A stretch of DNA of 64,000 nucleotides from a virus (taxonomy: Duplodnaviria > Caudoviricetes). The notes under the pieces are model-generated. The model worked only from the letters and a program-made list of their open reading frames with translations. It was not told the origin of the DNA and searched no databases. Every line of letters starts with the position of its first letter. Positions within the stretch are counted from its first letter, which is position 1. Shown one piece after another: positions 11,393 to 59,386 of this stretch. Made by a program: the position numbers and the translations under genes. Where the stretch lies: positions 32,001-96,000 of IMG/VR virus record IMGVR_UViG_3300021255_001366. One strand, 5' to 3'.

Positions 11393-11419
11393 TAAAAAGG
11401 CATGGCGATAACCATGCCT
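11393..11419 (-). terminator. Intrinsic terminator
   Basis: AGGCATGG/CCATGCCT stem with U-tract on the - strand. Confidence 0.65.
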
Positions 11420-11432
11420 AAGTTACCATAAT

Positions 11433-12023: not shown

Positions 12024-12037
12024 ATCTTGCCTCCTCC

Positions 12038-12712: not shown

Positions 12713-12720
12713 TCACCTCC

Positions 12721-13308
12721 TTAATTATATGGTTGTGCCCAGAAGAATCCATCATGTTGATATGAAGGCTCTGTGTCTGAGACAATTTCTAAGCCACTAA
12801 CAATTGAAGCAGCTTGCTCAACGCTTTCTGCTGCGTTAACCTCACTAATATGTGCGGCTTCTGCGCTTTGAACAGCAAGTTCTGAACTATGAACAGAGAT
12901 AGGAGCAGCCTCAATAGCTTGTTGTATTAATCCTAATTCGTCTTGGCTTTCGATATCTCCATCTTGTACGGTTGATTCTTCAACCTTGATAATGCCAGTA
13001 ACAGTTGCAATAACCGTTTCGCTTTCGGTTAACGACAATTGATATTTACACTTCCCAGGAATTGAGGTTATTTGTTCTGTTATTTCAACTGAAACAATAT
13101 TGTCAGTAATAGAGCCATAGCTAAGCACAACATGCCCATCAGGCTTTTTTAACTCAAACGCAACAGCAACACCAGTAAGGTCTAATGGCTCACCATCTTT
13201 GGTGACCTCAAACTGTACTTGATATCCGCGATTGTATTGTTTCGCATAGATTTGTTCATATGTTTGATTATCACGAATATCAATTCTGATTATTTGTGAG
13301 TTCTCCAT
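12721..13308 (-). CDS. BppU family upper baseplate protein
   Basis: AKQYNRG, PLDLTG and KKPDG motifs. Confidence 0.8.
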   Translation of the reverse strand: MENSQIIRIDIRDNQTYEQIYAKQYNRGYQVQFEVTKDGEPLDLTGVAVAFELKKPDGHVVLSYGSITDNIVSVEITEQITSIPGKCKYQLSLTESETVIATVTGIIKVEESTVQDGDIESQDELGLIQQAIEAAPISVHSSELAVQSAEAAHISEVNAAESVEQAASIVSGLEIVSDTEPSYQHDGFFWAQPYN

Positions 13309-13585
13309 TATTTACCTCCTGATTTAATATTAATAAATCTTCATCATTTACGGATAAATCATGATTTAAATCCATTCGATATGAGAAAAACATATCTGGA
13401 ACAACCATAATAAATCCTTTTTGTCTTTGTTCTACATAAAAACTTAACATACGATAATCAACATCATTTACGATGCCGTCCTTATCATAATCACCAACCG
13501 TGAAATAATTATTTTTAAACAATAAAAAAACGCATATAGCAACTATTACTAATGCGTAAAAAGGTAATAATCTCATTTTATTCAT
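13280..13585 (-). CDS. Membrane-anchored/secreted dockerin-like protein
   Basis: N-terminal hydrophobic helix; GDYDKDGIVNDVD and MDLNHDLSVNDED Ca-binding loops. Confidence 0.7.
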   Translation of the reverse strand: MNKMRLLPFYALVIVAICVFLLFKNNYFTVGDYDKDGIVNDVDYRMLSFYVEQRQKGFIMVVPDMFFSYRMDLNHDLSVNDEDLLILNQEVNNGELTNNQN

Positions 13586-13587
13586 AA

Positions 13588-16500: not shown

Positions 16501-17052
16501 TGCTACCGTGCCCGTCAGAAAATCATAAATACTCGTACCATTCGTAGAGAATGTACGTTGTATCCTGGCAATAGAATCATCAACATGCCCGACACTATAA
16601 TCTGGGCACTTGTCATGAAGCACCCGATGTATCAACGAAGCGTTGTGATCGTCCTCATTATAAAGAACAGTAGGAGAATAGTCTTCTCGTGCAATGTCAT
16701 CTTCTGTATTACACTCGAAGTCATACAGTATTCTCTTACTAAGCTCAAACTCACATGCAGAAGTTCCGACAACTTGTTTCACGGTTTCATCCGCATCGTC
16801 TATGGTTACAAATATGTTAAAGTACTCGTTGAACTCTGGTACATACACATACTTAAAGTCAACAATCTGATCCCAAAGAGGCTCTTCTTTATTGTCAAAC
16901 TTTTTGTGTACCGTAAAAGAAATCTCTTGAGCACTATTCATGTTTTGATTAATCTGAATAGAAGACTCGTCTACGGTAACAAGTCTCCCAAGGTGTTTAT
17001 GATATTTGGTGGAGAGTATGATCATCGGATACTCTAATTTTGTATATATCAT
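13588..17052 (-). CDS. Tail spike/Tal-like protein with Zn ribbon and C-terminal dockerin-like motif
   Basis: Follows Dit; CDSC...CPKC; YDLNQDGLIDAHD. Confidence 0.8.
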   Translation of the reverse strand: MIYTKLEYPMIILSTKYHKHLGRLVTVDESSIQINQNMNSAQEISFTVHKKFDNKEEPLWDQIVDFKYVYVPEFNEYFNIFVTIDDADETVKQVVGTSACEFELSKRILYDFECNTEDDIAREDYSPTVLYNEDDHNASLIHRVLHDKCPDYSVGHVDDSIARIQRTFSTNGTSIYDFLTGTVAEEIECLFKFDSVNRVVNCYDLKFVCDSCGHRGDFASACPKCGSTEYHSNYGQITDIYISAENYAESISRSGDTDNVYNCLRISGGDDDVTTAFMYVNPNGSRYLYSFNEHMLSDMPEELVQKIHDYNVLYEDNIVKYQEASTQYYEAVDRKNYLEHTMMPKVTTPTTDAKKEADELPGDFLEFGSVCVTNIDSISTISADLAVQGLARVLVDARYDVKAKGELATVDTNNKRWTGVCTITNYGDDEDTAQTEQFSVLIQGGTDTAYAKYLYQRILKQLDRDDNTFYDLFTLTDVEIFKEELTKYSKARLESFYHSYETCLNVMIENGVTDKNSDFYGVHLYETMYEPYKERMDLIVDELAVRDADIAEQDELITSARETINGFHNLLDFKSFIGDDLWLIFSHYLVESEYTNDNYVSDGLDNKQLLDKARELYDVAAKEVVKASTEQYTLSATMNNLLQEKGFAPYVDQVQLGNWIVVRSDEELFNLRIIAISIDYGNLASIGITFSNADRINNTINDAKSILDQVKSMASSYNTVAHQANQGDEANENVTDWKNMGLDGTLVAIKNNNNEEVLFDNNGILLRSWDDIAGKYSQSQAKLTHNVFAFTDDNWKTCALGIGEGDYIKYDPVEDKFITKRGYGLISKFVTAGCVNGSMIIGGQIYSNNYSHKNKTGSYLDLENGKFSLAGGKLTFDGHEFINNGSLTVKDANEEIVFKADVDNRIVQVGGFTATSDALYHGTDSLTSTNLGVFIGVDGDNVGLRNYKDATHSVTISNGTLTANNVAITGGSLNINNKFVVNASGVLTATSANFSGAITGSSFTASGSITKYARDYSEADVTRMREIMVGISEPSSSDYEKYDLNQDGLIDAHDLVSVRRFIDGIDTSRTINTSIVINPLTHSNIIETDGVYIRSNGIYAKSIQTENLQMHSFKMYDPSSGNIRPGMDGTWSNITKIRIVGGVIMSVIGTREDV

Positions 17053-17849
17053 AGTCCCACCTTTCTAATTCCACGATATGTAAGCGCAATAATACATGGA
17101 AGCGTACAACTAAAAGTATTAACACTGTTCCTATATTCATTCACTAATCGTGGAAATTTATAATTATAGTCCTTAGCGAGAGAATGACTAGAATTCGAAG
17201 ATGTAATCTGAAGAATATCACTGCCGTCAATTGTTATCACCTCATCGGCAATACAATTATCGATGGCAGTGGTGCGGTTCTCATTTACATTTGTTAACTC
17301 GAAATTTCCGCCTCCTCGCATAGTAATTGTCATATCAGGGTATATATATCCCTCTTCTTCACTGAAGCAGTTAATCTTAAAAGAACTATCGGCTTCAAGA
17401 GAGTATATACTAGTTATCGGTTTTGTTACGGCAAACGGACGATTTGACTGAATTGTAATTTCAACGCCACGGCAAACACCATGTAACAAAACCTTGGACA
17501 ACGTACATCTCACTTCGTAGAAGATTTCGTCGTCGTCCTCATCATCAACCCATTTGAACCATTTGTAGTCTTTACGGCACAACCACTTTGCGAGTTCTGA
17601 AATGTCGTCATTCGTTAACTCGTCATCCTCTTGGTTATCACAAATGTTTTTACAAATCTGAATGGTTCTTTGGTAGTTGTTTGAATACGATGTAGCAACT
17701 TTGTGTGATACATCTGATAATGGCGAACTAATGTCCGTGTAATCCATCTCCGAGACAACAATATTCTCATCCACCGATTGGTCAAAGCTGCACATCATAT
17801 ACCCAAAGTGGGAGAGTAGTTGTCCGTCGAACATGAAGTCTACAACCAT
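17049..17849 (-). CDS. Distal tail protein (Dit)
   Basis: DFMFDG..LS.FG start, KWL and FPRL motifs; after tape measure. Confidence 0.75.
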   Translation of the reverse strand: MVVDFMFDGQLLSHFGYMMCSFDQSVDENIVVSEMDYTDISSPLSDVSHKVATSYSNNYQRTIQICKNICDNQEDDELTNDDISELAKWLCRKDYKWFKWVDDEDDDEIFYEVRCTLSKVLLHGVCRGVEITIQSNRPFAVTKPITSIYSLEADSSFKINCFSEEEGYIYPDMTITMRGGGNFELTNVNENRTTAIDNCIADEVITIDGSDILQITSSNSSHSLAKDYNYKFPRLVNEYRNSVNTFSCTLPCIIALTYRGIRKVGL

Positions 17850-17871
17850 GTATGCTACACCACCTTTCTAA

Positions 17872-18171
17872 TTAAATTTCCATTTCATGCTTGGCTTCCT
17901 TAAATGCCTTCTTATAAGTGCCGTCTACCTTACGAACAGAAGACCTTAATTCTTGCATTAATGACTTATATGCCTCACGGTCTTTCTCGAGATCAACAAC
18001 AAGTTTTGCATACTCAAGTTGTACCTTTTCGGCAAGCCTCATTTTAGTTTCATATTGTCTCTTTAATCTATCTACAGTACGTGCTTCGTTGAGCAGTCGG
18101 TCATTATCAGCTTGAAGCTTCTCAATTTTAGCCTCTAACCGTTCTATCCTTTTGTATGGATTCATATCCAA
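17872..18171 (-). CDS. Coiled-coil hypothetical protein
   Basis: Heptad-like sequence; RBS present. Confidence 0.6.
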   Translation of the reverse strand: MDMNPYKRIERLEAKIEKLQADNDRLLNEARTVDRLKRQYETKMRLAEKVQLEYAKLVVDLEKDREAYKSLMQELRSSVRKVDGTYKKAFKEAKHEMEI

Positions 18172-18186
18172 TAATCACTCCTTTTT

Positions 18187-18218
18187 AAAAGGTCGCCCAG
18201 CTTTAACACTGGGCGACC
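18187..18218 (-). terminator. Intrinsic terminator after the tape measure gene
   Basis: GGTCGCCCAG/CTGGGCGACC stem with U-tract. Confidence 0.75.
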
Positions 18219-18224
18219 ACAGTT

Positions 18225-21200
18225 TTAAAATCTATTTTTCATTAGACTATTATGACCAGTTGCTTGACCAAATGTAATCTCTTGAATGAAACTACTAAAT
18301 TGACCATCTTTCTTCATAGCCTCCTTAAACTGCTCATAGTTCTTAACATTCGGGAGGTTAATAGAAATAGCGTTTTGGTTGTTAATGGTATTACCATTAC
18401 CATTACCGTGAGGTATGATAGACTGAATGTCTTTAGCCGTAGGAACATCTGTCTTGGAGAGTTCCCACAACCTTTGAGCCATTTCATTGGTAAATACCAT
18501 ATCGCCAGAACCAAGAGGTGTTAACATTGCTCCATCTCCCGTACGGTAGATAAGCTCTTGTCCTTTCTCCTGAGTCCATGCTAACTGGTCGTGAGGAATC
18601 TTCTTAGATCCCTTCGCAAACTTATTGTAATGGTACGGACTAAGGTCACGGATACCGTGGTATCTTCCTACCCAAGCACCGCTATAAATATAACCTTCTC
18701 GTCCCATTTGGTTAACGATGTTCTGCACCTTATCAGCGTCGAATCCTTTTTGTCTCAAGCGGTTAAAGCGGTCTTGTCCGGAACCCCACCCGTAATTGCC
18801 ATTCCATATAGCAAGAGCAACACCATAATAATCCTTTTCAGAACGCTTAGGTGTTTGAGCTGCCTTAGCGGCGGCTTGCTTCTTAGCTGCGGCTTGTTGC
18901 TTAGCCTTCTCTGCTTCAGCAGCTTTCTGTTTAGCGGCGGCCTCAGCCCTAGCTTTTGCTTCTTGCTCTGCTTTGATTTGTTGTGCTTTCTTAATCGCAG
19001 CCTGACGTTCAGCTTCAACTTGTGCCTTGCCAGCGTCCGTCATACTGTATACGTAAGCCTTGATTTGGTCTATAGATGCCTTAACGGCAGTAGAATTCGT
19101 GTCGAACTTATTCATGAAGTCGGATACGAGAGTAGATATCTTATTGCTATTCAAGATGTCATTCAAAGGCTTTGTAATAGTATACGCAACCTTATCGGTT
19201 TCAACCTTAATAGTATCCTTAATAATGGCGGTATTCTCATTAGCGTTATCAATCATGTCATGCATAAGAGCATCAACATCATCAAGTCTTGCCATGAGTA
19301 CCTCTTCATACTCTTGTCGCATCTTAGAGATGAGTTCCTTAGTCTCGGAAATCATCTTTTCCCATTCGGTCTCTTCAAGTTCTTCACGAGCTTCATTTAA
19401 GTTGTTCTGCGTCTGCTGAATTGTCTTACGTGCCTCTTCAGAGTCATCCCCAGCATAGGCATTAAGCATCTTCTCCATGGAATTGATATTCTTGACTTGT
19501 TGCTCGATGTTCTTCGAGTAGTCATACATGTCTTTCTCTCTGTCCATAACCTCTTGATATTTATCAATCAGTTTATCGAGGTTCGACAAGTGTTCTTGGA
19601 TTCCCTTCTCTACAAGGTCTTTAACGGCATCCTTCATCTGCTCTGCTGATTTAATTGCATTCTGCTGAGCATCAACGAGCTGTTCATACCTCTCAATTAA
19701 GGACTTATTTCCAGGATCTTTCGCAATTTCTTTTTCAAGTTTACGACGCTCCTCAGCGTAATCCAATGCTTGACGCATAGCGGTTTCATATTGTACCGCA
19801 AACAATCCATTGGTTGCTTGACCACGATTAGTCAACCGTCCATCGTCCTCATAGAGTTTGTCGTTAGACATTAAATCTACAAGGAATTGTGCTTCACTTG
19901 TAATACGTGAAATGCGGCCTTCAATCCAGTCAAAGATTTCCCAATCAAGATTTCTTATTTCGTTATTAAACTTAACGAGAGCAGTAGTAGATTCCTCGAT
20001 AGCTTTCTCAACAGAAAGAATCTCTTGGTTCATAGAATTCCAAGCCGATGACCCCTTCTCTATAGCCCCACTAGCAACTGCTTCGTCACGTTTCTTTATT
20101 AATTCTTGATACTCTTGTGTAAGGTATCCAAGTTCCTCGTTTTCGTACTTAATGAGTTCCTTGTAATAATCCTTACTTACAAAGTATCCATGTTCTTGCG
20201 TTCTACTAATGCGCTCATCTATGATGTCTGCATATGAAGTAGCATACGCAATTAACTCTTCAAATTCGGATTTGATATTGTCGAACTTTGTTTCTGCGAG
20301 TTCACCAAGTTTAATGGTTAATGTTTGAACTGCATCATAACATTCAACAGCCTTATTAAACCACTGCTGATACAGATTGATTTTTTCAACAAGTGGTTCA
20401 TTGTTTTTAATTGTTTCAATATCAATCAAACCATTCCGAACTTTATATGCATACTCTTCGGACAAACCTACAGAGTTAGCTTCTTGTAAATATCTTTCAT
20501 AACCTCGTCGTTGGATATCAATTTCTTCGCGTACTCGATCCATCTCAGAGATAAGACTCTTGTTGCGCTTTGACCACAGCGTATATGTGTTCTCGGCAAC
20601 CTCATTAAGCCTTGCTATTTCTTCCTCGATGCGCTGAATCTTAACCTCAATCCAATCGAATGTTTCTTTAGCTTCGTCGGCACTCTGATCATCGCGACCG
20701 CCACCTGAATTTCCAGAACCACCAGGACTAGGAACATTAAATCTATCTCTCCAAGAAGATGATCCAGCACGACCTCCGGTACCAGCACCGTGATATTGTG
20801 TTCCACTAGCAAATGAACCCATCAACTGACCACGAGAGTTAATCTTATGACTTGACAATAACTGCCTTGTCTGTTCAGCGTTAAAAATGATATCGCCTTT
20901 GACAACTGGAATTACTTCCGCACCATTAGAACCGATAGGGTAAACTTTCCCATCACGAACAAGTAACTCTTCGCCAAGCTCGCCTACGAGAGACATACCG
21001 CTTTGTTGAACGTTAGAATTACCATATGCACTACCAATCCAAGAACTACCATGTTGAGGATTAGCTTTCGTTCCATTTGTTGTTACACGAATATTAAACG
21101 GTTGATTATTAAGAGAGCTTTGAATGCTTTGACGCAAAGAAATTATAGCGCCTGGAGCAAGATTCAATTGAGTCTTTACAGTCGCATGTGTATTATTTAT

Positions 21201-24200
21201 TGCGGTAACTAAAACATTAACATCTTTTTTTGCTTGTGTGGTATCTGCTCCAACTTCGACATCACCATTCTTAACAAAATCATTAACATCAATACTGTCA
21301 GTTTTTTCTTTAATTGATGCAACTATTCCACCAGCAGAAGCAGTATCCCAATTAATACCACTCAAACCAAGAGTAGATTTGTTCTCAATGCCTTGAAGGT
21401 CTTTCATTAAAGCGCTAAGTTTTTCTTCTGCGGCATCAGCTTCAGAAGAATCAATCTTCATCTCTCGGTTATACTCTACTTCGTTATATGTTTCGATAAA
21501 TTCTTGAACTAGTGAAATATCTTCAGAAAGAGTACCCTCGACATCACTAGCGTCAACATCCATAATTGTTGGACGTTCAAGTTCTTGCTTCTGACGCAAT
21601 AACGCAGCCATAGCAGTAGATGCTTGTTGCCATTCTTCCGTATCCGGCGTTAATGTATCTCTATATTCAGATATCTGTTCAAAATCGCCAAGAAGAGTAT
21701 CAATATCTTTAGAATCAAAATGAATTTTAAAAGGAGCAGAGATTTTTTTAGACACTGCCTTTTGAATATCTTCAGCATACGACTCTGCTTCTGTAACTAA
21801 TTCATCTCTAGATTTTTCAGACAATCTTAGTTCAAAATCAATACCTTGATTAAGTCTACGTTCTGTAGCATACAACTCTTCTTCAAGACTGCTTACATCG
21901 TATCCGGCCGCCTTTAATTCTTCAATAGACTTCTTGTAATCGTCCATCTTCTGACGTGCATCAACACTTTCGTCAGATATAGCAGTTAATCCGTCAACAA
22001 TGCTGTCAGAGATATTGTCAAAGTCTATATCAAAATCCCAAGCATCACTAGTAGCAAGCAAGAGATCAGTAGCAGCAGATACGCTCAAGTCCATACGTTT
22101 AGCGAATTCATCAATATTTTTTACATTAATCGCATAAACACCTTCGGCATCTTTAGTAATCATACCTTCGGTTTTTTCGACGGCATCATCTAAGAAATTA
22201 TAGATACCAGATATGTCTTCAGTAAAATATCTTTGACCACGCTCAATATATTCTTCGACCTTGTCAGCCCAATTCTCATCATAAACATCACTACCAAATT
22301 CCATGATGTCTGGATTGAATCCATAACCACCAAGATACTCCATGCCCTTGCGGAATTCATCTGTACCAGTCCAACCGGACTCAAATGACTTCTTAAGGTT
22401 TTCTACAGCAGAAGCAGCAGTATTAAAGTTATCAGACAAGTTGGGAGTCTCTGTTGCCTTAACGTATTCGTTAAGAGCAGACATCGTAGCACGGATTTGT
22501 GCCTCAAGCATATCATAACCATTGATTTCATCAGCTAATGCTTGTGATTTATCAAGGCTTGCTATCAATTCAGAACGCTCTGCATCTGTTAAATCCTTAG
22601 TAACATTAACATAATCACGAAGAGTTTGCTTACCTTGTGCACGAGCATTTTTGAGACGCTGAGTTTTACTGGTAAGTCTGTCTATGGTTTTGATTTCTTC
22701 GTTGTATTCTTTGACAGCAACAGCTTCTTTAAGTTCTGCACTAACAAGTGTCGCTTCGGCTACTTGCTCTGTATACTTCTGCATTGCTTCAGTATTGAGC
22801 ATAACTCCGTTGTCAGTAAACGTATATAATGATTCTTGTAAATCACCATAGGTTTGATTTAACTTTTGAAGTGTTTCATCTGTTAAATAACCCTGGTCTT
22901 TCTGTTCAGAAAGAGCAGTAGTAAGAGACTCGAACATAGCAGTGTTAAACGAGAGTTTTCCACGAGCCGAATTGTATGCTAAATCATCAATAAACGAATT
23001 CCACGCAGCAGTACCCTTCTTGAGAAGTTCTTCATCAATCTCTCCATTGTTAAGAGCGGCCACCCAAAGGTCGTAGCGATCGTCAGATAGGGTATTAATG
23101 AATCGCTCATACTCTTGTCTTAGTTTGCGTCCGTTATAATCCGCAGTCTGATTTCGCCTATCTGTTGTTACAGAGTCATCTAAAGTCCACGCATTTAATG
23201 CCTTATCTCTGCTTGTCATGAAGCCATCAACTTGAGCAAGTTCCATTAGTTTATCAATTGGAACATTCGGAAGAAGTTTTTGCAATATCTCTAATTGCTC
23301 ATTAATATCCGCTACACGATCAGCATAACTTACACCTTTCGCATTTTGAACTCTATTAATCTCATTTAAAATGTCTACGACTTGATCAGTATCTTGTTTA
23401 GATAATTGTTCGAATTGTTCGTTGATATCTTTAATTGCTTGACTTTGTTTTCCAACTGCGCCAAGTTCATCAGGTAATGCTCCATAATCATAGGTATCAA
23501 GCATTCTCTTATATAATTCTTGCTCTTTACCAGACAAAGAATTATAAAACTCATTTGCTTCTGTGGCATAAAACCGAGACATATACGTTCCAGCTTCTTG
23601 ATTAAAATTATGAAGCTGAGTAGTGTGCATTGTTAAATTTGTTCTAAATTCAGTCTCAACTTGCTTGAGTTCTTTTTCTAACCATGCTGATTGCTCCGCA
23701 GTAAGATGTTCATAATCAACACTGCCGTATATATTTTCAAGATGCCCGGTTAATTTTGATATATCTAGGAATTTGTACGAATCACCGCTTTCATCAAGTC
23801 GCCCAGATCGAATATCGGAAATAACCTTATTCAAGCTATCCATCTTTTCTTGGTATTCGTCAACCTTATCTTGAGCATCTTCGACATTAAGCATTGCTCC
23901 AGAGAATAAATCTTCAAATTGACTTGCAAATTCTGCATTGGCAATATCTTGACTCTTTTGAAGTAATTCGTCTAACGACCCAACAATAGTTCCAACAGTA
24001 CCATTAAGGTTAAGAAGCGCATTGCCATTTTCATCATATCCGTTTGTTAATTCAGGGAATATTTCTGCAAGCTGATTACTGATGTTTAAGAATTCAGCGT
24101 ACTCATCATTTGACAAAGTACCTTGGTTTTGTTGTGATGTACCAAGATTATTAACTTCTTGTGCAAGCTCAGCATAACGTTGTTTTACATTGTTTACCGT

Positions 24201-24695
24201 ATCAGAGTTTTGCTTCATAGAAGAATCAACATCATCAACAGCATCTTTGGCTTTTTTGTAATTCTCCCGGATGTATTTCTCAGGATGAAAAGCCTTATCT
24301 AATTGATCAAATAGAAAACCTACTCCAAATGTTACAGCAGCAGAAATTCCTCCAGCTATTAGACTGGTACCAATGTTCGTAATTAATCCAGTAAAGAAAT
24401 CCTTAAACTTAACGCCCATTTGACCAAGAACAGTATAGTTCTTTTGCATAGTCTTAACCATGGAAGCACCGTCGCCAATAGCATTGTTTAACTTAAGTTG
24501 GTCTTTTGCGGCGCCAATAATACGAGCATCAACGTTGTCGTACGCTTTTGCCATTTCGTCCAAGTCGGCGTCTTCAGCAACATCCTCTTCCTTCAACATC
24601 TTCAAGAAATCAGCATTGCCTTTTTCTTGTAATAATCCCTCAAAATATTTCTTAGATTTAAATATAGGCGTTTTATTCTCTGTATTTCCAAACAG
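18225..24695 (-). CDS. Tape measure protein, exon 3 (includes a CW_7-like repeat)
   Basis: No RBS; begins CTG TTT GGA right after the intron terminal G; coiled coil; LVGELGEEL and WTQEKGQE motifs. Confidence 0.85.
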   Translation of the reverse strand: MFGNTENKTPIFKSKKYFEGLLQEKGNADFLKMLKEEDVAEDADLDEMAKAYDNVDARIIGAAKDQLKLNNAIGDGASMVKTMQKNYTVLGQMGVKFKDFFTGLITNIGTSLIAGGISAAVTFGVGFLFDQLDKAFHPEKYIRENYKKAKDAVDDVDSSMKQNSDTVNNVKQRYAELAQEVNNLGTSQQNQGTLSNDEYAEFLNISNQLAEIFPELTNGYDENGNALLNLNGTVGTIVGSLDELLQKSQDIANAEFASQFEDLFSGAMLNVEDAQDKVDEYQEKMDSLNKVISDIRSGRLDESGDSYKFLDISKLTGHLENIYGSVDYEHLTAEQSAWLEKELKQVETEFRTNLTMHTTQLHNFNQEAGTYMSRFYATEANEFYNSLSGKEQELYKRMLDTYDYGALPDELGAVGKQSQAIKDINEQFEQLSKQDTDQVVDILNEINRVQNAKGVSYADRVADINEQLEILQKLLPNVPIDKLMELAQVDGFMTSRDKALNAWTLDDSVTTDRRNQTADYNGRKLRQEYERFINTLSDDRYDLWVAALNNGEIDEELLKKGTAAWNSFIDDLAYNSARGKLSFNTAMFESLTTALSEQKDQGYLTDETLQKLNQTYGDLQESLYTFTDNGVMLNTEAMQKYTEQVAEATLVSAELKEAVAVKEYNEEIKTIDRLTSKTQRLKNARAQGKQTLRDYVNVTKDLTDAERSELIASLDKSQALADEINGYDMLEAQIRATMSALNEYVKATETPNLSDNFNTAASAVENLKKSFESGWTGTDEFRKGMEYLGGYGFNPDIMEFGSDVYDENWADKVEEYIERGQRYFTEDISGIYNFLDDAVEKTEGMITKDAEGVYAINVKNIDEFAKRMDLSVSAATDLLLATSDAWDFDIDFDNISDSIVDGLTAISDESVDARQKMDDYKKSIEELKAAGYDVSSLEEELYATERRLNQGIDFELRLSEKSRDELVTEAESYAEDIQKAVSKKISAPFKIHFDSKDIDTLLGDFEQISEYRDTLTPDTEEWQQASTAMAALLRQKQELERPTIMDVDASDVEGTLSEDISLVQEFIETYNEVEYNREMKIDSSEADAAEEKLSALMKDLQGIENKSTLGLSGINWDTASAGGIVASIKEKTDSIDVNDFVKNGDVEVGADTTQAKKDVNVLVTAINNTHATVKTQLNLAPGAIISLRQSIQSSLNNQPFNIRVTTNGTKANPQHGSSWIGSAYGNSNVQQSGMSLVGELGEELLVRDGKVYPIGSNGAEVIPVVKGDIIFNAEQTRQLLSSHKINSRGQLMGSFASGTQYHGAGTGGRAGSSSWRDRFNVPSPGGSGNSGGGRDDQSADEAKETFDWIEVKIQRIEEEIARLNEVAENTYTLWSKRNKSLISEMDRVREEIDIQRRGYERYLQEANSVGLSEEYAYKVRNGLIDIETIKNNEPLVEKINLYQQWFNKAVECYDAVQTLTIKLGELAETKFDNIKSEFEELIAYATSYADIIDERISRTQEHGYFVSKDYYKELIKYENEELGYLTQEYQELIKKRDEAVASGAIEKGSSAWNSMNQEILSVEKAIEESTTALVKFNNEIRNLDWEIFDWIEGRISRITSEAQFLVDLMSNDKLYEDDGRLTNRGQATNGLFAVQYETAMRQALDYAEERRKLEKEIAKDPGNKSLIERYEQLVDAQQNAIKSAEQMKDAVKDLVEKGIQEHLSNLDKLIDKYQEVMDREKDMYDYSKNIEQQVKNINSMEKMLNAYAGDDSEEARKTIQQTQNNLNEAREELEETEWEKMISETKELISKMRQEYEEVLMARLDDVDALMHDMIDNANENTAIIKDTIKVETDKVAYTITKPLNDILNSNKISTLVSDFMNKFDTNSTAVKASIDQIKAYVYSMTDAGKAQVEAERQAAIKKAQQIKAEQEAKARAEAAAKQKAAEAEKAKQQAAAKKQAAAKAAQTPKRSEKDYYGVALAIWNGNYGWGSGQDRFNRLRQKGFDADKVQNIVNQMGREGYIYSGAWVGRYHGIRDLSPYHYNKFAKGSKKIPHDQLAWTQEKGQELIYRTGDGAMLTPLGSGDMVFTNEMAQRLWELSKTDVPTAKDIQSIIPHGNGNGNTINNQNAISINLPNVKNYEQFKEAMKKDGQFSSFIQEITFGQATGHNSLMKNRF

Positions 24696-24704
24696 CAAAA
24701 CTAA

Positions 24705-24733
24705 TTGAATATATGTCTATATGGTGTTAATAT
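24705..24733 (+). promoter_or_regulatory. sigmaA-like promoter of the intron-nested gene
   Basis: TTGAAT-17 nt-TAATAT with extended -10 TG. Confidence 0.55.
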
Positions 24734-24752
24734 TATATTAAGGAGGTGGATT

Positions 24753-25262
24753 ATGATGGAAGATAACGCAATAGTAGTATACTGCGATATGTGTAGGAAA
24801 AAAGAAACTAGTAACAATTTACACATTAAACGTATTGTCGCATTCAGAGAATACGACGATTTTAATGGCACATGTCCACGATGTGGTAATCAAAACTGTA
24901 AAATACTTCACTTGACACAGAGCGAGATTTCACCAATTTATGTTCATGCTGAGTGTGCGGGGCAAGACGAAGAGTATTTGATTAACAAAGTTTTCGAATT
25001 CGATGAACTCAAAAGAAATAATCCTGAGGAATTCGATAAGCTATGGCAACCATTAGAAGAATTTAGAATCAAAGAACTAGAACGCAGAAAAAATTCAAGA
25101 AGTAAAAATGATTCTAATTCGCCCAAATGCCCCACATGTGGAAGTACCAACGTCAAAAAAATCTCCGGAGGTAAGCGTTGGCTTGGAGTTGGATTATTTG
25201 GTCTTGCATCATCTAATATTGGCAAAACATATGAGTGTAAGAATTGCCAATACAAGTGGTAA
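24753..25262 (+). CDS. Double Zn-ribbon protein with Gly-rich hydrophobic segment, antisense inside intron 2
   Basis: AGGAGG RBS; CDMC/CPRC and CPTC/CKNC pairs; WLGVGLFGLAS. Confidence 0.85.
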   Translation: MMEDNAIVVYCDMCRKKETSNNLHIKRIVAFREYDDFNGTCPRCGNQNCKILHLTQSEISPIYVHAECAGQDEEYLINKVFEFDELKRNNPEEFDKLWQPLEEFRIKELERRKNSRSKNDSNSPKCPTCGSTNVKKISGGKRWLGVGLFGLASSNIGKTYECKNCQYKW

Positions 25263-25265
25263 TAC

Positions 25266-25294
25266 TTGACATCCACATCAGAAAGTACTACGAT
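25266..25294 (+). promoter_or_regulatory. Near-consensus sigmaA promoter
   Basis: TTGACA-17 nt-TACGAT. Confidence 0.65.
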
Positions 25295-25330
25295 ACAGAT
25301 GCCATACAATACGCCAAATCGCGTATTTGA

Positions 25331-25356
25331 GGAGGCGGGAGACCGTCTCCTTTTTT
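25331..25356 (+). terminator. Intrinsic terminator of the nested cassette
   Basis: GGAGGCGG-GAGA-CCGTCTCC-TTTTTT. Confidence 0.85.
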
Positions 25357-25787
25357 GACTTTTTATAGGATTCTCAGTCCTATTGTTTCGACTCTACCTT
25401 CATGCCTTTCGACACGCCCACTTGGGAGCCTGTGGGGGCGATTCTTGATAACTTGCCAAATCTGTCTTACTAACATCGAATTTTGATATTAATGTGTCAG
25501 ATTTGTCTAGTTATTAGACCATCTCCCTGCTGATTGAGTTATTGGGTAGTTTGCTTGCGCAAGTGAGAACCAATAACCTTTCCAGTCCTTGTAGGAGTCT
25601 CACGAACATCCTAGGGTCGGTAGTCACACCGATCCATATCAGTGGTACGAGAGGGACGAATGAAATATGTCCCATAAAAGTCTCGTTTGATTTTACTTGT
25701 ACACCCTACACCTTGCGGTGGTCTTTGTGTTTTACCTACGGTTGGTTAGCCGTAGCACGGGCGTGTACCTGAGCCTATTTGGATATA

Positions 25788-26358
25788 ACCCAGCTTTGAA
25801 AATTTGTTTGATAATACAAAAGTTCCGATTCCGGCAATTAGTGTTTTTAATGTGCCGAAAGAAGATATAAGGTCATTAACAATGCCTAAGATATTATTGC
25901 CAGTATCTATGAGTCCTTTTAAAAATCCAGAGTCTAATACTCCGGTAGCAAGTTCCTCTAGCGAAGCTTTGAGTCTATTTGTTGAATATTCAAGACCTTG
26001 TTCGAAATTGGCTTGTTCGCGCATTGCACTACCAGCAGAATTCTCTGCGGTGTTATATGCAGCTTCAAGAGTCTCGATATTATCAAGCACGGCGTAAAGA
26101 GCGTTTGCATTTCTTTTACCAGCTAATGCTTCTCCAAGAGATGCACGTTCAATGTCATCAAGATTCTTCCATTCTTTACCAATACCTATAAGGATATCAT
26201 AGATTGACTTAAATGTTTTCTGATCCGCTTCTAATATATCGAACCCGGTTAAACTCTTAACCAATCCCTGAAGTTTAGAAGTTGTTTCTGTAAACTCGTC
26301 AGTCTCTTCTCCGAGGTCTTCTAATTCTGTTGATGCACCACGTATGCGAGCACTTAAT
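25788..26358 (-). CDS. Tape measure protein, exon 2
   Basis: LSARIRGA...FKSIYDIL...LAGKRNAN...NSAGSA; continues exon 1 and exon 3 in frame. Confidence 0.88.
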
Positions 26359-26965
26359 CGTTTGTATTAACATTGTTCGCAACACAATGCTTTTATTATA
26401 TTAATTATATGTGATTAATTAAAAAACGTTCCATATTGTCATACTCCCAATACGGAACGCAAAAAGGTATTCTTTCTCAGGAGTATGCTGAGTAGAATAC
26501 TCTTTGTCGTATTTTTTCATAATAATATAATAAAACTCATAGTTTCCCATGAGACTAGACTATTTCTTCATCCTCTCTACAAAATAGAGTAGGAGTATAC
26601 CTTTTCGATTTAAGGGGATTTCACCCACGCCATTTGCGATTGCGCCCTACGATTATTGTTATGGATATTCAGGATTTCCACCCTTATTCTCTTGTCCATA
26701 ACTCGACGTGAATCTAGTCGTTGAACCTTTACCCTCGACTCAAGCACCGGATGGTCTCCGGAATACGTTAGGGTACTTGGCTGCAAGAACTACCATTTGC
26801 CTTCGCCAGTACTTAGGTTTTTGACCATATACCATCCTTACGTTGTTTCTACTTTCGTACCATCATAGCGTGATTTCTCCGCTATTGTGGTGTAAGGCTT
26901 TAGGTTTTACCTGCAATTAAATATATTCCATATGCACATTACTGTACATAAAGACATAAAAGTTT
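26359..26965 (-). mobile_element. Group I intron 1 of the tape measure gene (607 nt, no ORF, IA-like)
   Basis: P TAATTGCAGG (26919-26910), Q CTTGCAGCCAAG (26787-26776), R GGTTCAACGACTAG (26727-26714), S AAGAAATAGTC (26568-26558), P9 with GAAA loop, terminal G; splicing restores FKTLSARIRG. Confidence 0.9.
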
Positions 26966-29900
26966 GTCTTGAAAACAGTTCCTACTTGTTCAGGATTTTG
27001 TACAACAGTGTTGGCGGCTGTGACGAGCGCTACAGATTCCTCAAGTGAAGTGTTTGCAGCATTTAAAGAAGCAGCTGAACGCTGTAATGCCTCACCAATT
27101 CCAGCACTATCAATTGCATAATTATTCGCAACTTCATTGAATACGTCTACAATATGCTCTGCTTGATCTGCTTGCATTTGATAACCTTGAAGCGTTGAAA
27201 TCAAACTTTCGTTTGCAGTTCCAATATCAATACCGTCTCCAACATTTTTATACAAAAGTGCAACACGAGCCAGCTCTTTAGCATCAGGAACAGAATACCC
27301 AAGTCTAGACCAATCTGCTGTTGCGCTTATTGTGTCAGAAATAGTAGCACCAAGATCCTTTGCGGTATTTGCATAAGCTTCAAAATCATTTTGTATTTGA
27401 CTAAGAGTTTGCCCTGATACCTTGGATAATTCGACCATCTGTTTGTTGATATCTGCAACATATGTATACCCTTGGCGTACAACTCTAATAACATCATAAA
27501 AACTATTAAATGTAGTAAGAGTCGCAATCATGGACTTTGCACGTTGCTTAATCATGTTGAATACAGACGATCCAGTCTGACCAGCTTTATATGCATTTGA
27601 CTGGATAGTTTGAATCTGGAGGATAATCCCATCCAATTCCTCTCTTGTTAAAGTCGCACTACTACGCAGCTTCTCAGAGATTTCGTCAAACTGAGTTCCA
27701 TATGTACTTTCTGCGGCTGAGTTTTGTCTACGCCATTTTTGAAGATCCTTTTCTATACGAAGCTGTTCCTTGTAGCGTTTATCTTCAGCAGCTTCTAGTT
27801 TTTTCTGGTCATTAACGTTCTTTTGATTGTTTTTAGCGACAATTTTGCCCAGCTCATTTTGTGCACGTTCATTTTCTTTTATTACATCAGTAGACTTTTC
27901 ATACTCGACATTAAGCTGACGCATAGATTGTAATTGTTCTTCGTACATTTTTGCACGACTAACAGCATCTCGTTCTAATTCTTGTTCTCCAGATAACTGA
28001 TACTTCTTCACTTCAATCATTGCGTTATTGTATTGCTTTAAAGTATCAACATATTTTTTCAATGCTTGCTTGTCTTGTTTTTCTGAAGAATCAGATTGCG
28101 CCAATCCACCATTTGATTTATCAAGCTTACGTGCCTCAATAACGGCTATTTCTTGCAAATTCTTTTTGCGCATCTCTAATAATGTATTAACTTGCGCCTC
28201 TGCGTTTGCATTTTCATCTATAGCCTTGAGTTCTTTTGTTTTTTCTTGATATACAGCTAAAGCAGTTTTCTTTTGTGCTTCTAGTTCTGTTATTTCAGCA
28301 GTATTTTTTACAGGATCTAGTTTCGCAATTTGCTTTCGAATATTAAGAACATCTTGGTATGCCGTCTTTTGCTCAGATAACAGATTATTAACATTAGATA
28401 CTTGAAGACCTTCCTCTGCTTTCTTCTTTGCTTCAGAATTCTGCCTCATTTGCTTATACAGATTCTGACGTTCTTTCTCAATTCTTAATTTTTCTCTTTC
28501 AGCCGCAAGGTCGGTTGATTTATAATCATCAGATTCAGCTACGCTTGTGTAGGCAACCCCGCCCTTTTTATCATATTTGATATTTAATCGTTGTGTTTGT
28601 TTTACTAATTTTCCACTCGAATCTTCAACCATGCGCTCTGCTTTAATTAACGCTTGAGCTAAATCATCGTGAGAATCATAGAATCTTTCAATACTAGCAA
28701 TATATCCATCAACTTCATATGAACTTATTTCTGCTATAATAGCATTTTCTATTTCTCTTGTTCGTATTTTGGCTTGTTCCGGATCATACTTGTCATCATA
28801 CGGGACTTTAGTTTTGCTTTGTTTTTTCTTTGCTGATTCAACCTTAGAAGATTGCATATCAGAAACAATGTTGTTCAATGGAGTTTTAAGGTCTTTGTAC
28901 CAATTTCCATATTCTCCATTATTCAACTTTGTTGCTTCTTCTTGTACTTCTTTAGCAGTAAGAGTTCCAGCGTTTACCAGTTCACGAACGGCATCCTCAA
29001 CTTCACCTTTATGCTTTTTAATACCTTTCGCATAACCCTCGCCCCACATTTCTCCAAGCGCCTCGGCTACCCTAGAAGGAGAGCGTGAGTCTTGTGCTTC
29101 GGCAGTACCTTCGTTTGCTGCATTAGCTAAATCAGCACCAGCTTGTTTGGCATTTGGTTGTTCGGATTCCATTCCTTCGACATATGATTTTCCTTGCTTT
29201 TTACCGTTAGATGAATCTGGAGTTTCATTGGATATTTGAGGAAGGTCAGGAAGTTCAACTTTATATTTATTAAATAATTCCTTTATATAACTTTCAACTG
29301 TATCCTGTATGTTGTTAAAAGCTTTAACAAAATCATCATCATCTAAACTACCTATTTCTCCTCTGACATTAGTCATTGCTTGCTTAATAAAGTCTTCTTC
29401 AGAGATTTGTTTATCCAAAGCTTCGCGAATAGTATAATCCATTGCTTCAGCAACAGCATCATAATACTTTCCTGTTATTTCAAAATACTGGCGTTCTGCA
29501 TCTGATGACATAGAAAACGGTGAAAAATTTGAACTGTCTACTTCAGAACCAATAAGTTTAGAGTAAGAATCGGCAAGAAATGTTGAAAGATAGTGTGCGG
29601 ATTGACTTTTCATCATCATTGAATTATGATTTAAGCCATAACTACCAGTTGACCTTATCATAAACTTCTCGAACTTTAAAACAGAAGAAACTTGTTCATA
29701 AGTAGAATCAATATGTTCTTTTAAAAACAATAATATTTTTTTAAACTCTTCAATTTTATTATTGATTGCTTCATCATTATTAACATTTAATTCTCTAAAT
29801 TTACCAAAATCATTCAGTATTTTAATAAGATTATCAATATTATTTTGCTCATTTTTAAGAGTATCAATTATATTAGTGTCAACTTTACCACCTTTAGACG

Positions 29901-32900
29901 TAACAATTGATTGAACCAAGCCATTTGAAAGACTATTATATAAATCAGATAATGGAATAGGAATTTCTCCATTTTCATTTTCTAATTCGAGACCAGCAAT
30001 ATGCGAAATATTTACAAGGGACTTTACTACACTAGCAATAAGACTGTTTTTTACATTAGACAAATCTATATTCAAAGTTTTGCCTTGCCACATTAGTTCG
30101 AACTGCTTACCTATTCCTTGAGACAAAAATTTATCAAACCACGTTAAATAATCATCTTCTGATAAAGTACCACCTAAAGGTGAAATAGAAGAGTGCTTAT
30201 GAAATATTTTTGCGGCATTAGTTGTATTCATTTCATCAGGTAAATTCATCCTATCTAATTTACCTATAAATGAATCTATGACTTTTCCAGTTTCATCAAA
30301 AATAGCAAAACGTTCTTCTAATGAATTATCATTTTTAACTTTCTTTATAAATTCTTCATAAGATAAGCCTATATCAGAAATAACTCTTTTAGTTCCTTGA
30401 CCTAACTCTTCATATTTATCTTGAGTTTCTTTTATTTCTGATTGTAAACGGTCTTGTTGTTCTTCGATTCCCGATGAAAGATTATTTTTATTACTAAACG
30501 GTTGTTCAACTTCCTTTAAATTTGCCTTATAATTCTCAAGCGTTTCCTTGAATAAAGCCGTAGCCTTTTGTACTCCAAGACGTTTCTTCTCAACGCCTTC
30601 CATAACGTTGTCAAAAATCTTTTGGAGTTCGCCGTCGGAAACTTCTCCGAAATCAATAAGCCCCTTATCTTTTTCCACCTTAATGGCATCAAGGATTTTC
30701 TCTCGTTTTGATTTAACATTTTGATTATTGGCTTGAGCAGAGGTATTCTCGTTTACTTTTTTTGTTTCTTCTTCGACCTTTGCTATATCTTCTTGCTTAA
30801 CAACTGGGGTGTTTGCGTTGTCTTGTTTAGCTTTCTTGTTTGCATCAACAGCAGAAGTAAGCCGCTCATACTCGGCTTGTAAACGTTGTTGTAATTTTGT
30901 ATTATCTGTTAAATCAGTTATAGACCGAGAACCACCCTGTTCTTTATATTCACTATATTGCTTAATTATATTAGCAAGGTTGCCCTTACCTTTGCTCGTA
31001 CGTTGATCAAAACTATTCTTGTCAACAAACGAAAGCATTTTATTAAAAGATTTTTCTAAATCTTTTGTATTCTCTTGTATGCCGTCGGTAACACCTTCCG
31101 AAATACTCTTGCCAACATCTTTTGACGCTTCCTTAATTGGTTCACTTGCTTGTTTTACTATATCACCCATAGAAACAACACCATTTTGAAGCTCTTGTTT
31201 TGCTTCTTCCATGGATTGTTTTACGGCTGGAGCAATACGCTCAAACTCCTCATTAATTTTCTTTATAATGACCTTTTTCCATCCAGGACTCTCGTTAGAC
31301 GCATTAGTCTGATCAAAGATAGTCTTAAGAATACTTGTTTCTCCAGTATTCATATATGCTTTGCTTAATTCTAAAATATTGTTCGCAAATCTAGCAGACG
31401 ATTCATTAATAATCGAACCATCTTTTTTTGTCTTAATCTTCGATTTATCAACAAGTGATCCTGTAATATTTTTTAAAAAATTTTTTTCGCTTGCATCAAC
31501 TTTTTCAGGGATAAAGTTAAAGTATTGTTCTGCTTTTTTTAACTCTGCATTAAGTTCAGCGACATGATCTTTTTGTTTTCTCGTTTTAGACGCTATTTGT
31601 TCTGCTGGTTTAGATGCGTCTTTAGCACCTTGTATTAAGTTTTTATAGGCATCATATTCGCTTTTAATCTCATCTGCGTTTTTACTAGATTGAATAAAAT
31701 TCTTCTTTTGTTCGTTGTATATTAATCCGTTTGCATTTAATGTTTCTTCTAATTCTTTCTTACGAATCTCAGATTCTTCTTTTAAAACCTTAACGGTTTC
31801 ATCATTGCTTTTAATATACTCTTTTTGATATTTTGAGATTAATTTAATGGTTTCAAGATATTCGTTTTTAAGTTTTTGAATAGCAGTAATATTATTATTT
31901 ACTTCTTGTGTATTATCTTCTAATGCAACAGTATCATTTTTAATATCACTCTGTGCGTTATTACTTTCAGAAGAAATAGAAGTAGTTGTTTTCGGTTTAT
32001 TTTTTTTCTTAGTATTTGTGTTTTCAACAGTTGTTGTTGATTGCATATTACCAACATCTACAACAATCGCATTTTCAGCCAATGCTTGTTGCAGTGTTTC
32101 AACAAAACCATTAACACTTGAAATCAACGGAACAACTGGCACCTTTACTGGCTCATTTATTTGACCTTCAATTTCTGATATAAAAGTTGAAGGATCAATT
32201 TTGCCATCAATCTTAACTTTAATTGATTTAATATTCTTAATTTCTGCTTCTATTCTAGAGAGAATATTTGCAACACCAGAATCAGTTACATTTGAAAATA
32301 TAGCTTGAATCTGATTAAGATTCAATCTTATTATTTTAGTTTGTTCAACAACATTATTAATAGCATTTATTAATGGATCAAATGTGCCACTAAACGCCTT
32401 GTTATTATCTGCTAATACGGTTTGTAAATCTTTTAAAGCATTCGTAAATGTAATAAGAAGATTAACATCTTTTTCATCCGGAGTTTCATTTTTCTTATTT
32501 TTCTTTGTATCAACTTTTGTTATTTCCAAAGAATCTAATAATGTTTGAAGAGGAGTAATCTTAGTAGATATTTCTTCCAAACCTTTTGTAAAAGCAGAAG
32601 CCCAACTTTGAACTTTTTTGTCATCAAGCATAACATTAACTTCTTTGGCAAGTGTAGCCAATGAGTCTGTTATATTTAAACTAAATTCCTTTGTCAGCGC
32701 CTCAAGCTTCGCTTTTATCTTGTCTCCTTCTTCTTGAGAAATATCAAATTCAGGATAAAATTTAAAATGTTGTTCTTTAAGAGTTTGTTGTATTTGATTT
32801 ATATTCTCTGTTATTCTTTGTTTTGTTTCTGGAAGATTGGTTTTGATATTTAAAACAGCGGCCTTGTCAAATTGCGAACGCATTTTTTGAAACAAATCAC

Positions 32901-34083
32901 TATAATCATTTTTTAATTGTGGATCATCTATTTTTACGATTTGCGCTTGAATGTTTTTTAACGCCTTATTTAATTCTCCTTGTTCCGCCTTAGTTCCTTT
33001 AAATGCACCAAATCTTACTTGCACTTCAACTGGATGTTGCCCAGAATAAGAATTTAAATCATCAACAAGTCTAATGATATCTGGTTTTAATTTATCAATC
33101 GATGCTTCATCTAAAAGTACCGGAATCCTAATTCCACCATCTTTAAATTGAAATGTTGTAACCATTTGTTCTGCGGTTTGCCCAAGACCTTTCAATGTTT
33201 CAACCATTTCAGATCTCGTTTCCGCAAGGCTTTTATTAATTGGGCTACTAATATCTTTTAAATGTTCTAACTCACCTGCAATCGAACTAAGATAAAACGT
33301 CTTCCCGCCTCTAGAAAAATGCATTTTAGAATCTGCAAAAGAATTTTCACCATTTAATTGAACCAATCTTTTTGAAAGTTGTTCAACTTCAACTGCTGTA
33401 TCTACAATTCGCTTCTGCATATTACGAAGCGCAATAGGATCTTTTTGTGTGCCAAGCCTACTTTGAAGTTTTTCTAATTTTTCATATGCATCAACAAGAT
33501 TATCTTTTAATTCTTTAACATTATTTGATTTAATATTGTTTTTATTATTATCTATATTTATCTTATTAAAACTTTTAATTACTTTGTCTAATTCTTCTAA
33601 TTCTTTTGTTTCTTTTTTTACATCAATTAATTCTTTGAATTCTTTAAAAGAGTCCATAGAAGACTTGGTTTCTTTTTTAAATGAATTTAATTTATTATTA
33701 ACGTTTTCTATTTTTTTTACTATCTGATCATTTTGCTGCCTACTATTTAAAGATTGATTAAACTTTGCAATATCTTGTTCAGCCCCAGAAAGCCTTACTC
33801 GGAATTCATCCATTGTAGATTCAAATTTTTTTTGAAATCCATCAAACTGAGATGTGTCTATTTTCGAATTTGCAAAATTCTTCAAAGTATTTGAATACTC
33901 ACCTTGCAAGTCTTGAAGACATTTAATTATAGTATTTAAATCATTAACATAATTACCGCCAATACTAATATTGTCTCCAATTTTTTGTATTCCGCCTAAT
34001 TCTTTCTGTATATTTTTTATTTGATCACTTATATCTGCTATATGTGGTTCAACATTAAGAACCCATTTTATATTATTACTCAT
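26966..34083 (-). CDS. Tape measure protein, exon 1
   Basis: Long coiled coil; SPSR motif; TP901-type core (ADWSRLGY, DVFNEVANNYAI, ALQRSAA) near its 3' end. Confidence 0.9.
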
Positions 34084-59314: not shown

Positions 59315-59386
59315 TTGAAAATGTAGGATTCGAACCTCGCCCCTACAGCCCAAGTGTAGTGTGCTACCATTACACCACATTCTCAA
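59315..59386 (-). tRNA. tRNA-Pro(UGG) with atypical T arm, possibly a pseudo-tRNA
   Basis: Acceptor GAGAATG/CATTTTC, D arm GTGT/GCAC, CTACA-CTTGGGC-TGTAG anticodon arm, GGTTCGAATCC. Confidence 0.65.

Follow-up and report, generated by a model that had tools for sequence, protein, structure and literature searches.

The window analysed here, a stretch of 64,000 nucleotides corresponding to bases 32001-96000 of a 123,919-bp IMG/VR phage record that has direct terminal repeats and is rated complete, carries three long open reading frames (ORFs) on its minus strand, called at 34083..26917, 26264..25746 and 24698..18225. The question raised by this locus is whether these are three genes or the parts of one. 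We consider it very probable that they form a single late gene for a tail tape measure protein of 4,719 residues, split at two points by group I introns that would remove themselves from the transcript. A preliminary description of this DNA had reached the same reading from exons of 7,118, 571 and 6,471 nt, and all of its coordinates and numbers were reproduced here. When joined, the exons (Table 1) give 14,160 nt in a single frame that encodes 4,719 amino acids and a stop codon with no internal stops, and the gene occupies 11% of the 124-kb genome. Throughout, L001 to L091 denote relative loci (L001 being MT835469.1 and L060 MT837120.1) and P0001 to P0008 database proteins.

Exons were placed by locating the junction motifs, and their joining restores ...VGTVFKT^LSARIRG... 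at join 1 and ...FSKLG^LFGNTE... at join 2 (the caret marks the junction), which contain the junctions FKT^LSARIRG and KLG^LFGN originally described. A Shine-Dalgarno sequence, AAGAAGGGAG, precedes the ATG of exon 1. As had also been claimed, neither of the other exons has such a ribosome-binding site: the frame of exon 2 is closed by a TAA 4 codons upstream of the join, and no start is possible before a TTG that lies 31 codons into the exon and has no Shine-Dalgarno sequence, and none is contained in TATATTCAATTAGTTTTG, which stands before exon 3. Translation continuing out of exons 1 and 2 would meet in-frame stops 16 codons into intron 1 and 13 codons into intron 2 respectively; exon 3 is an open frame of 2,156 codons.

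Identification of the product as a tape measure protein comes from several profile and sequence comparisons. Pfam PF10145 (PhageMin_Tail) matches residues 2239-2373 with an E value of 1.3e-18 (profile positions 2-140 of 201), and this match ends exactly at join 1, which splits a codon within the Pfam domain. The tape measure profile phrog_4211 (2,625 positions) is matched in order by exon 1 (486-775), exon 2 (806-949) and exon 3 (1031-1604), with E values of 8e-34, 6e-26 and 3e-18 respectively. A Pfam search with exon 2 alone gave no match, although PHROGs did; used as a query, exon 2 was found embedded inside annotated larger tape measures in 94 phage records. BLASTP aligned the spliced product with tape measures that are uninterrupted, those of phages Sundance (2,528 amino acids), Tsamsa (3,123 amino acids) and WRP3 (3,334 amino acids). 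The Tsamsa and WRP3 alignments cross both joins and reach from exon 1, by way of exon 2, to exon 3; none of the three has a gap at join 1, where Sundance has VGTALKTVSMRLRG opposite VGTVFKT^LSARIRG. The ordered match of the ORFs to a single tape measure profile, together with homologues lacking any break at either join, excludes a chance origin of the three-ORF arrangement, and the claim that the three are one tape measure gene is borne out by the same colinearity and by homologues that run intact through both sites. A search of the PDB by sequence with exons 1 and 3 gave no match. Codon alignment of exon 2 between genomes that all carry intron 1 gave a ratio of nonsynonymous to synonymous substitution rates (dN/dS) of ~0.12-0.14, which argues that exon 2 is translated in the presence of the upstream insertion and suggests in turn that intron 1 is removed.

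The first insertion lies after the second base of the conserved threonine codon in FKT^LSARIRG, in the core domain of the tape measure protein. Rfam model RF00028 (group I introns) matches 26975..26536 over its full length (model positions 1-253) with 54 bits, against a gathering score of 50, and an E value of 6e-11. Its alignment places helix P1 such that the 5' splice site follows C26966, at the position of the conserved U.G of the model; exon AAGAC pairs here with the guide GUCUU (within UGUCUU). Copies in which the 3' end could be read finish in ...AAACG (window, L011 and L013) or in G (L068, L083 and L001), and helix P7 is GACUA/UAGUC in the window versus GAUCA/UGAUC in L011, which amounts to two compensatory changes. 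The insertion is exactly missing from L007/L009 (a 141.8-kb contig, 75% identical in exon 2) and from L010, where the sequence at the site is TTCAAGAC^ATTATC. It is likewise missing from P0001, which is 99% identical in exon 2 and reads continuously through ...VGTVFKTLSARIRG... before stopping inside intron 2 as the window does. The preliminary description had called for alignment to intronless homologues: L007, L010 and P0001 all read VGT(T/V)FKTLSARIRG at join 1, and at join 2 an uninterrupted relative, L064, has KNVGIFNN where the spliced forms have KKLG^LFNT.

Wider searches for relatives of both introns were made with nhmmer profiles. Members of the intron 1 family were located in L068, L083 and L091, each at the site used in the window, and two copies in MT835469.1 (L001). 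The L011 copy has a 379-amino-acid ORF in its 3' peripheral region that matches homing endonucleases (phrog_559, 1e-55), and in MT835469.1 (tape measure 43% identical) an intron 1 core and an endonuclease gene are likewise combined at this site. In L011 the endonuclease gene is preceded by a 65-amino-acid ORF; the window keeps only a remnant of this small ORF (Table 1), and its intron 1 appears to be an endonuclease-less derivative of a mobile intron family. L001 is a 176-kb phage from human faeces, and its tape measure homologue (11419-24389) is in at least four pieces; the second intron-1-family core, again with an endonuclease gene, is inside the equivalent of exon 2, and a further gap of ~3.9 kb is found near site 2. 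At 26536-26553 (minus strand) UUUUAUUAU comes after the final hairpin of the core matched by Rfam; our scanner gave this arrangement a terminator-like score, in the sense orientation of the tape measure gene.

The second insertion lies after KLG, at the start of a hydrophobic segment behind the core domain, and homologous RNA was found at the same place in L007, L011, L012, L013, L062, L063 and L083. RNAalifold analysis of four sequences gave 95 pairs, 42 of them with compensatory changes. With the P7 pseudoknot included, 98.2% of cells in the four sequences are paired and 43 pairs show double changes, by comparison with 34-41% and 3-7 pairs in slid controls; for six sequences the values are 93.1% and 55 of 100 pairs, versus 35-41% and 10-16 pairs. 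The individual helices are those expected of a group I intron. In P1, CUGGGU pairs with the guide GCUCAG through a terminal U.G that is invariant in all six sequences. P10 (8 bp in the window, L007 and L013) joins the eight bases directly 5' of the guide to the initial eight of exon 3, and its positions 7 and 8 alternate between G-C and A-U in a compensatory manner across the three genomes; the final base of the intron is G in the same three (3/3). Helix P3 occurs in four covarying versions (CCAC/GUGG, CCGU/ACGG, CCUC/GAGG and CACU/AGUG) and P7 in three (GGCUC/GAGUC, GGCUU/AAGUC and GACUA/UAGUC), the last of which is canonical and is found in L062. P3 and P7 form a pseudoknot with P8 between P3' and P7'; P8 is a hairpin of 6 bp, whose loop is GAAA in the four closest sequences, P8 and P9 both covary, and the J8/7-P7 string, GAAGGUAGAGUC, is near the group I consensus. 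Removal of the insertion restores the frame in three genomes, and in P0008 exon 2 runs into exon-3-like sequence in one frame. Further members were also sought by motif: a 24-mer from P8-J8/7 found only the known relative among viral contigs, and neither a degenerate 24-mer nor a protein-pattern scan found any in genome contigs. A 16-mer scan returned 47 loci, all of which were judged to be chance matches and rejected.

The 3' part of intron 2 carries a gene on the opposite strand, whose ATG is preceded by AAGGAGG at 24740-24746. Together with a promoter-like TTGAAT-17 nt-TAATAT (8 of 12 matches, below the promoter scanner's threshold of 9) and a terminator-like hairpin (Table 1), it would constitute an independent antisense transcription unit that is presumably expressed. 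A second promoter-like element, TTGACA-17-TACGAT (25266-25294, plus strand; 10 of 12 matches), lies immediately past the stop of the antisense ORF, ahead of the terminator, and leaves space for a very short transcript only. Orthologues of the gene are antisense within intron 2 of L007, L012 and L013. The encoded protein matched no homing endonuclease family in Pfam (which gave sub-threshold zinc-ribbon matches only) or in PHROGs (which gave none), and was not recognised as a member of the LAGLIDADG, GIY-YIG, HNH, His-Cys or PD-(D/E)xK classes; a Foldseek comparison of its AlphaFold2 model (predicted local distance difference test score, pLDDT, 68) with the PDB returned generic zinc ribbons only, with no match at E <=0.001. 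Zinc-ribbon homologues are also found antisense shortly after site 2 in L066, L087 and MT837120.1 (L060), where no intron-2-like RNA core could be detected; MT837120.1 was considered as a carrier of intron 2, its ORF ending after the core domain, but was rejected as nothing resembling the intron 2 core follows. One bold extension, which we regard as a long shot, is that intron 2 represents a new structural subclass of group I intron with an antisense zinc-ribbon partner that might control its splicing or act as a mobility factor. If so, many gut or rumen siphophages would share this subclass, with its four helical domains between P3 and P7 and its invisibility to RF00028, as a fixture of a single tape measure site, and the antisense protein or transcript might set the timing or amount of tape measure protein via splicing.

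A single protein of this size would have consequences for the tail. Tsamsa has a tail of 440 nm (PMC3903500) and a tape measure of 3,123 amino acids, or 0.14 nm per residue, and Thermus phage P23-45 has an 800 nm tail and a tape measure of 5,002 amino acids, or 0.16 nm per residue (10.1101/2022.12.01.518664). By these ratios a tail of 665-755 nm would be predicted if most of the protein acts as a ruler; this is a plausible extrapolation, and the figure of about 700 nm in the preliminary description is a reasonable one in the same sense. Parts of the protein may not be ruler, however, the candidates being the C-terminal wall-binding region, residues ~680-2100 and residues 1322-1786, and a real if lesser chance exists that one spliced tape measure protein is made but that cargo or enzymatic domains leave the tail far shorter than 700 nm (under ~550 nm). 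Consistent with this, the C-terminal part contains a CW_7 repeat (Table 1) and an endolysin-like region (phrog_7698, exon 3 residues 1864-1997), relatives have globular inserts such as the Prok-JAB domain of P0005, residues ~680-2100 are missing from P0004-type relatives, and in P23-45 an RNA polymerase makes up the N-terminal portion of the tape measure (10.1101/2022.12.01.518664). Yet Tsamsa and P23-45, both of them giants whose tails have been measured, come to 0.14-0.16 nm per residue even when the entire protein is counted, and in exon 1 the tape measure core is the only globular domain above the Pfam threshold.

The N-terminal part of the protein has a mosaic make-up. Relatives of the P0004 type align with residues 4-678 and 2109-2559 and have no counterpart of the intervening ~1,400 residues (exon 1 residues ~680-2100, about 32040-27780); the N-terminal 930 residues of P0001 are unrelated to the window protein; and residues 1322-1786 match the C-terminal ends of other tape measure PHROGs. 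An HKH...S..D motif at 30134-30329 (exon 1 residues ~1255-1315) has no match in Pfam but aligns weakly (BLASTP, pairwise E value 9e-5) with HTH...S..D at residues ~940-960 of P0005, for which the database lists a Prok-JAB domain somewhere along its length. Internal duplication was considered as a cause of the large size and rejected, as self-BLASTP of the tape measure protein detected no internal repeat at an E value of 1e-3.

A number of observations weigh against the two insertions being functional group I introns. For intron 1 the RF00028 score is borderline, at 54 bits but only 38.9 in a genome-wide scan of a shorter stretch, and the same model misses the homologous introns in L011 (at E values up to 10) and in L068, L083 and L091 (at the gathering threshold). 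The 5' splice site of intron 1 has a C-G pair in place of the U.G wobble, which nearly all group I introns have. Intron 2 gave no RF00028 match at E values up to 10, whether 3.5 kb, 521 nt or the relatives were searched. Between its P3 and P7 are two hairpins, a stem resembling P4-P5 whose internal loops are AAA/CAA, and a long stem resembling P6; with four helical domains there, the layout is non-canonical by comparison with the textbook core, which has two (P4-P5 and P6). Its 4-bp P4 is invariant, so covariation cannot support this helix, and the protein near join 2 is poorly conserved, leaving the exact join to rest on the RNA pairings and one uninterrupted relative.

Several of these points lose force on closer comparison. 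The intron 1 homologues that RF00028 does not see (L011, L068, L083 and L091) were recovered by nhmmer with E values between 1e-56 and 1e-167. Rfam's model of group I introns has little sensitivity for this phage intron family, and since it misses such clear homologues its failure with intron 2 carries little weight. Covariation backs both hairpins, the P6-like helix and the P5-like part of intron 2. An alternative P4, pairing UGAU(A)UGG with CAAUCA, was rejected on account of an uncompensated G to U change in L012 and L083. The C-G pair recurs, with exon ...AAGAC, then intron AAA... and guide UGUCUU, in all six copies at the FKT site (window, L011, L068, L083, L091 and L001), and so appears to be a family trait and not a one-off; the C is the second base of the conserved threonine codon. 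In an engineering study of the Anabaena intron (PMC12355055) the 5' splice site facing an N-N-G guide is stated to be Y-N-N, a rule under which C opposite G is allowed and the C-G pair is not disqualifying.

The possibility that one or both insertions are splicing-dead, owing to the C-G pair or to the antisense cassette, with a truncated tape measure protein or a defective phage as the result, was weighed against this background. It draws on the replacement of U.G by C-G at intron 1 and on the loss of the intron 1 endonuclease gene, but we judge it improbable: the pair is kept in six of six family members across tape measures that are 38-75% identical, unlike a recent lesion, and is permitted by the Anabaena rule; purifying selection acts strongly in carriers on exon 2, which lies downstream of intron 1; exon 3 has remained open over its whole length; and the record is a complete genome with terminal repeats. 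Somewhat less probable again is that the 1,092-nt element is a mobile cassette, comprising the zinc-ribbon gene and a structured RNA of some other function, whose insertion made two genes of the tape measure. No Rfam family covers the element, and the zinc-ribbon gene recurs antisense past site 2 without a detectably related RNA core in L066, L087 and L060; against this stand the group I set seen here, with a P1 U.G at the exact exon end, a P10 that tracks changes in exon 3, a P3/P7 pseudoknot with P8 between its strands, a J8/7-P7 string near consensus and a terminal G, and the restored frame in three genomes when the element is taken out. The two group I introns of the preliminary description are predicted on different grounds, an Rfam match for intron 1 and covariation-supported group I hallmarks for intron 2.

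Further evidence came from the distribution of the insertions among relatives. A profile-guided scan of IMG/VR yielded 38 loci with 30-75% identity in exon 2, of which two end too early to be informative. Among the remaining 36, 14 have an open frame at both sites, whereas stops occur in 5 near site 1 only (within 40 codons of it), in 11 near site 2 only and in 6 near both. This is a patchy pattern that is expected of mobile introns, and it runs counter to natively separate homologues, the outcome that the preliminary description had named as refuting its reading. In the closest large relative the ORFs flanking intron 2 encode 1,337 and 2,028 amino acids, together ~3,360 amino acids after exclusion of the intron-derived start codon. 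In L081 the tape measure ORF stops at site 2, and a RAGATH-18 RNA (L081 5304-5377; 71.9 bits against a gathering score of 44.9) lies ~1.8 kb downstream of that site. Exon structure, homology, the presence or absence of each insertion and the covarying RNA structures were all observed directly in these comparisons.

That the three ORFs are natively separate genes, with products that assemble non-covalently and ordinary intergenic DNA between them, is scarcely credible: gene callers do split the gene, and 92 of the 120 best homologues (334-2,000 amino acids) end within 15 residues of join 2, but that search left out proteins of >2,000 amino acids, so intact forms could not appear in it, and the 14 IMG/VR relatives that form one frame through both sites, the want of a start codon with a ribosome-binding site in exons 2 and 3, the codon cut by join 1 within a Pfam domain, and intervening sequences that are structured RNAs with guides matching the exon ends all speak for a single gene.

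For the single interrupted gene we propose the following course of expression. A late primary transcript would run through both introns, and only the doubly spliced mRNA would encode the full protein. Each ribozyme would fold and each intron then remove itself: intron 1 through pairing of its guide GUCUU with exon AAGAC and its terminal G, and intron 2 through pairing of GCUCAG with CUGGGU by way of the terminal U.G, P10 pairing to exon 3, and its own terminal G. The ribosome would then read one protein of 4,719 residues, which would template the tail tube as in other siphophages, while the C-terminal CW_7/endolysin-like part may act at the cell wall. It is the splicing of both introns, and any regulatory link to the antisense gene, that we infer in this scheme.

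The gene has the position expected of a tape measure gene in a tail module. Two genes downstream, past a 99-amino-acid ORF, lies the gene of a DUF6558 phage tail protein (17049-17849), which is followed by a protein of 1,154 amino acids (13588-17052, minus strand); no annotation was found for the small ORFs upstream of the tape measure gene. The 1,154-amino-acid protein has a sub-threshold match to Dockerin_1 (20.6 bits versus 22.9), which is a weak hint of a cellulolytic, rumen-type host. Features of the locus, and a tRNA gene elsewhere in the window, are listed in Table 1.

Table 1. Positions of the tape measure gene, its predicted introns and associated features in the window
Feature	Coordinates	Strand	Description
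Exon 1	34083..26966	-	7,118 nt; residues 1-2372 and two bases of the Thr2373 codon; ATG at 34083
Intron 1	26965..26359	-	607 nt; predicted group I intron without a homing endonuclease gene; last base G26359
ORF remnant	26419..26520	-	33 codons, within the 3' extension of intron 1; its initial ~19 residues match the beginning of the L011 65-amino-acid ORF
Exon 2	26358..25788	-	571 nt; residues 2373-2563; second half of the conserved tape measure core domain
Intron 2	25787..24696	-	1,092 nt; group I-like RNA; core ~25787..25364; antisense gene in 3' part; last base G24696
Exon 3	24695..18225	-	6,471 nt; residues 2564-4719 and stop codon
CW_7 cell-wall-binding repeat	18705..18788	-	Pfam PF08230, E value 7e-9; near the C-terminus, within the endolysin-like region
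Promoter-like TTGAAT-17 nt-TAATAT	24705..24733	+	Identified by eye; ~10 nt from the 3' splice site
Antisense protein gene	24753..25262	+	169 amino acids; two zinc ribbons around a helical core
Intrinsic-terminator-like hairpin and T run	25329..25352	+	Ends the antisense unit ahead of the ribozyme core
tRNA gene	59316..59384	-	Rfam RF00005, 51.8 bits

At 4,719 residues the protein would be near the largest known tape measure, that of P23-45 with 5,002 amino acids, and second to it in size, not a record. Gene callers also split the 120 best homologues (in the search limited to proteins of up to 2,000 amino acids), and catalogues will as a consequence undercount tape measure sizes and predicted tail lengths in these phages. 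As Rfam misses intron 2 and most intron 1 homologues, group I introns in phage structural genes are probably undercounted as well. The intron 1 family provides a natural series of C-G splice sites and with it a test case for the strictness of the wobble requirement.

Both the presence of two introns in one tape measure gene (PMC2504315) and a larger tape measure, of 5,002 residues, are already known; what sets the present locus apart is the C-G pair across the intron 1 family, an intron 2 architecture that Rfam does not see, and the antisense non-endonuclease gene within that intron. In Bacillus cereus-group prophages the group I introns TMP-IVS1, TMP-IVS2 and TMP-IVS3 interrupt tape measure genes (Tourasse and Kolsto 2008, PMC2504315), and like those described here they lie in conserved parts of the tape measure, are patchy among related phages, occur up to two per gene (B. 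cereus E33L) and include copies with and without endonuclease genes. They are canonical IA1/IA2 introns in tape measures given only as >1,200 amino acids, by comparison with 4,719 here, and differ from the present pair in which intron 1 has C-G and intron 2 is invisible to RF00028 and carries the antisense gene. The lysK intron of Staphylococcus phage K-type phages is matched by positions 26658-26536 of intron 1 (BLASTN, 72-76% identity, ~120 Staphylococcus phage records), a segment that corresponds to P8, J8/7, P7 and P9 in the Rfam alignment; the host gene there is an endolysin, unlike here, and similarity is confined to ~120 nt of the core. The tape measure of Thermus phages P23-45 and P74-26 (5,002 amino acids; tail ~800 nm to nearly 1 um) is of the same size class and likewise has an extra function fused to the ruler, although no sequence relation to the window protein was seen and the host is a thermophilic Gram-negative. 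Homology in sequence is shown by the tape measures of the large Bacillota siphophages Sundance (Brevibacillus), Tsamsa (Bacillus) and WRP3 (Lactococcus), which are colinear with the window protein over the core and beyond at 24-40% identity and are encoded in the same tail-module context, but whose genes are uninterrupted and whose products are 1,400-2,200 residues shorter.

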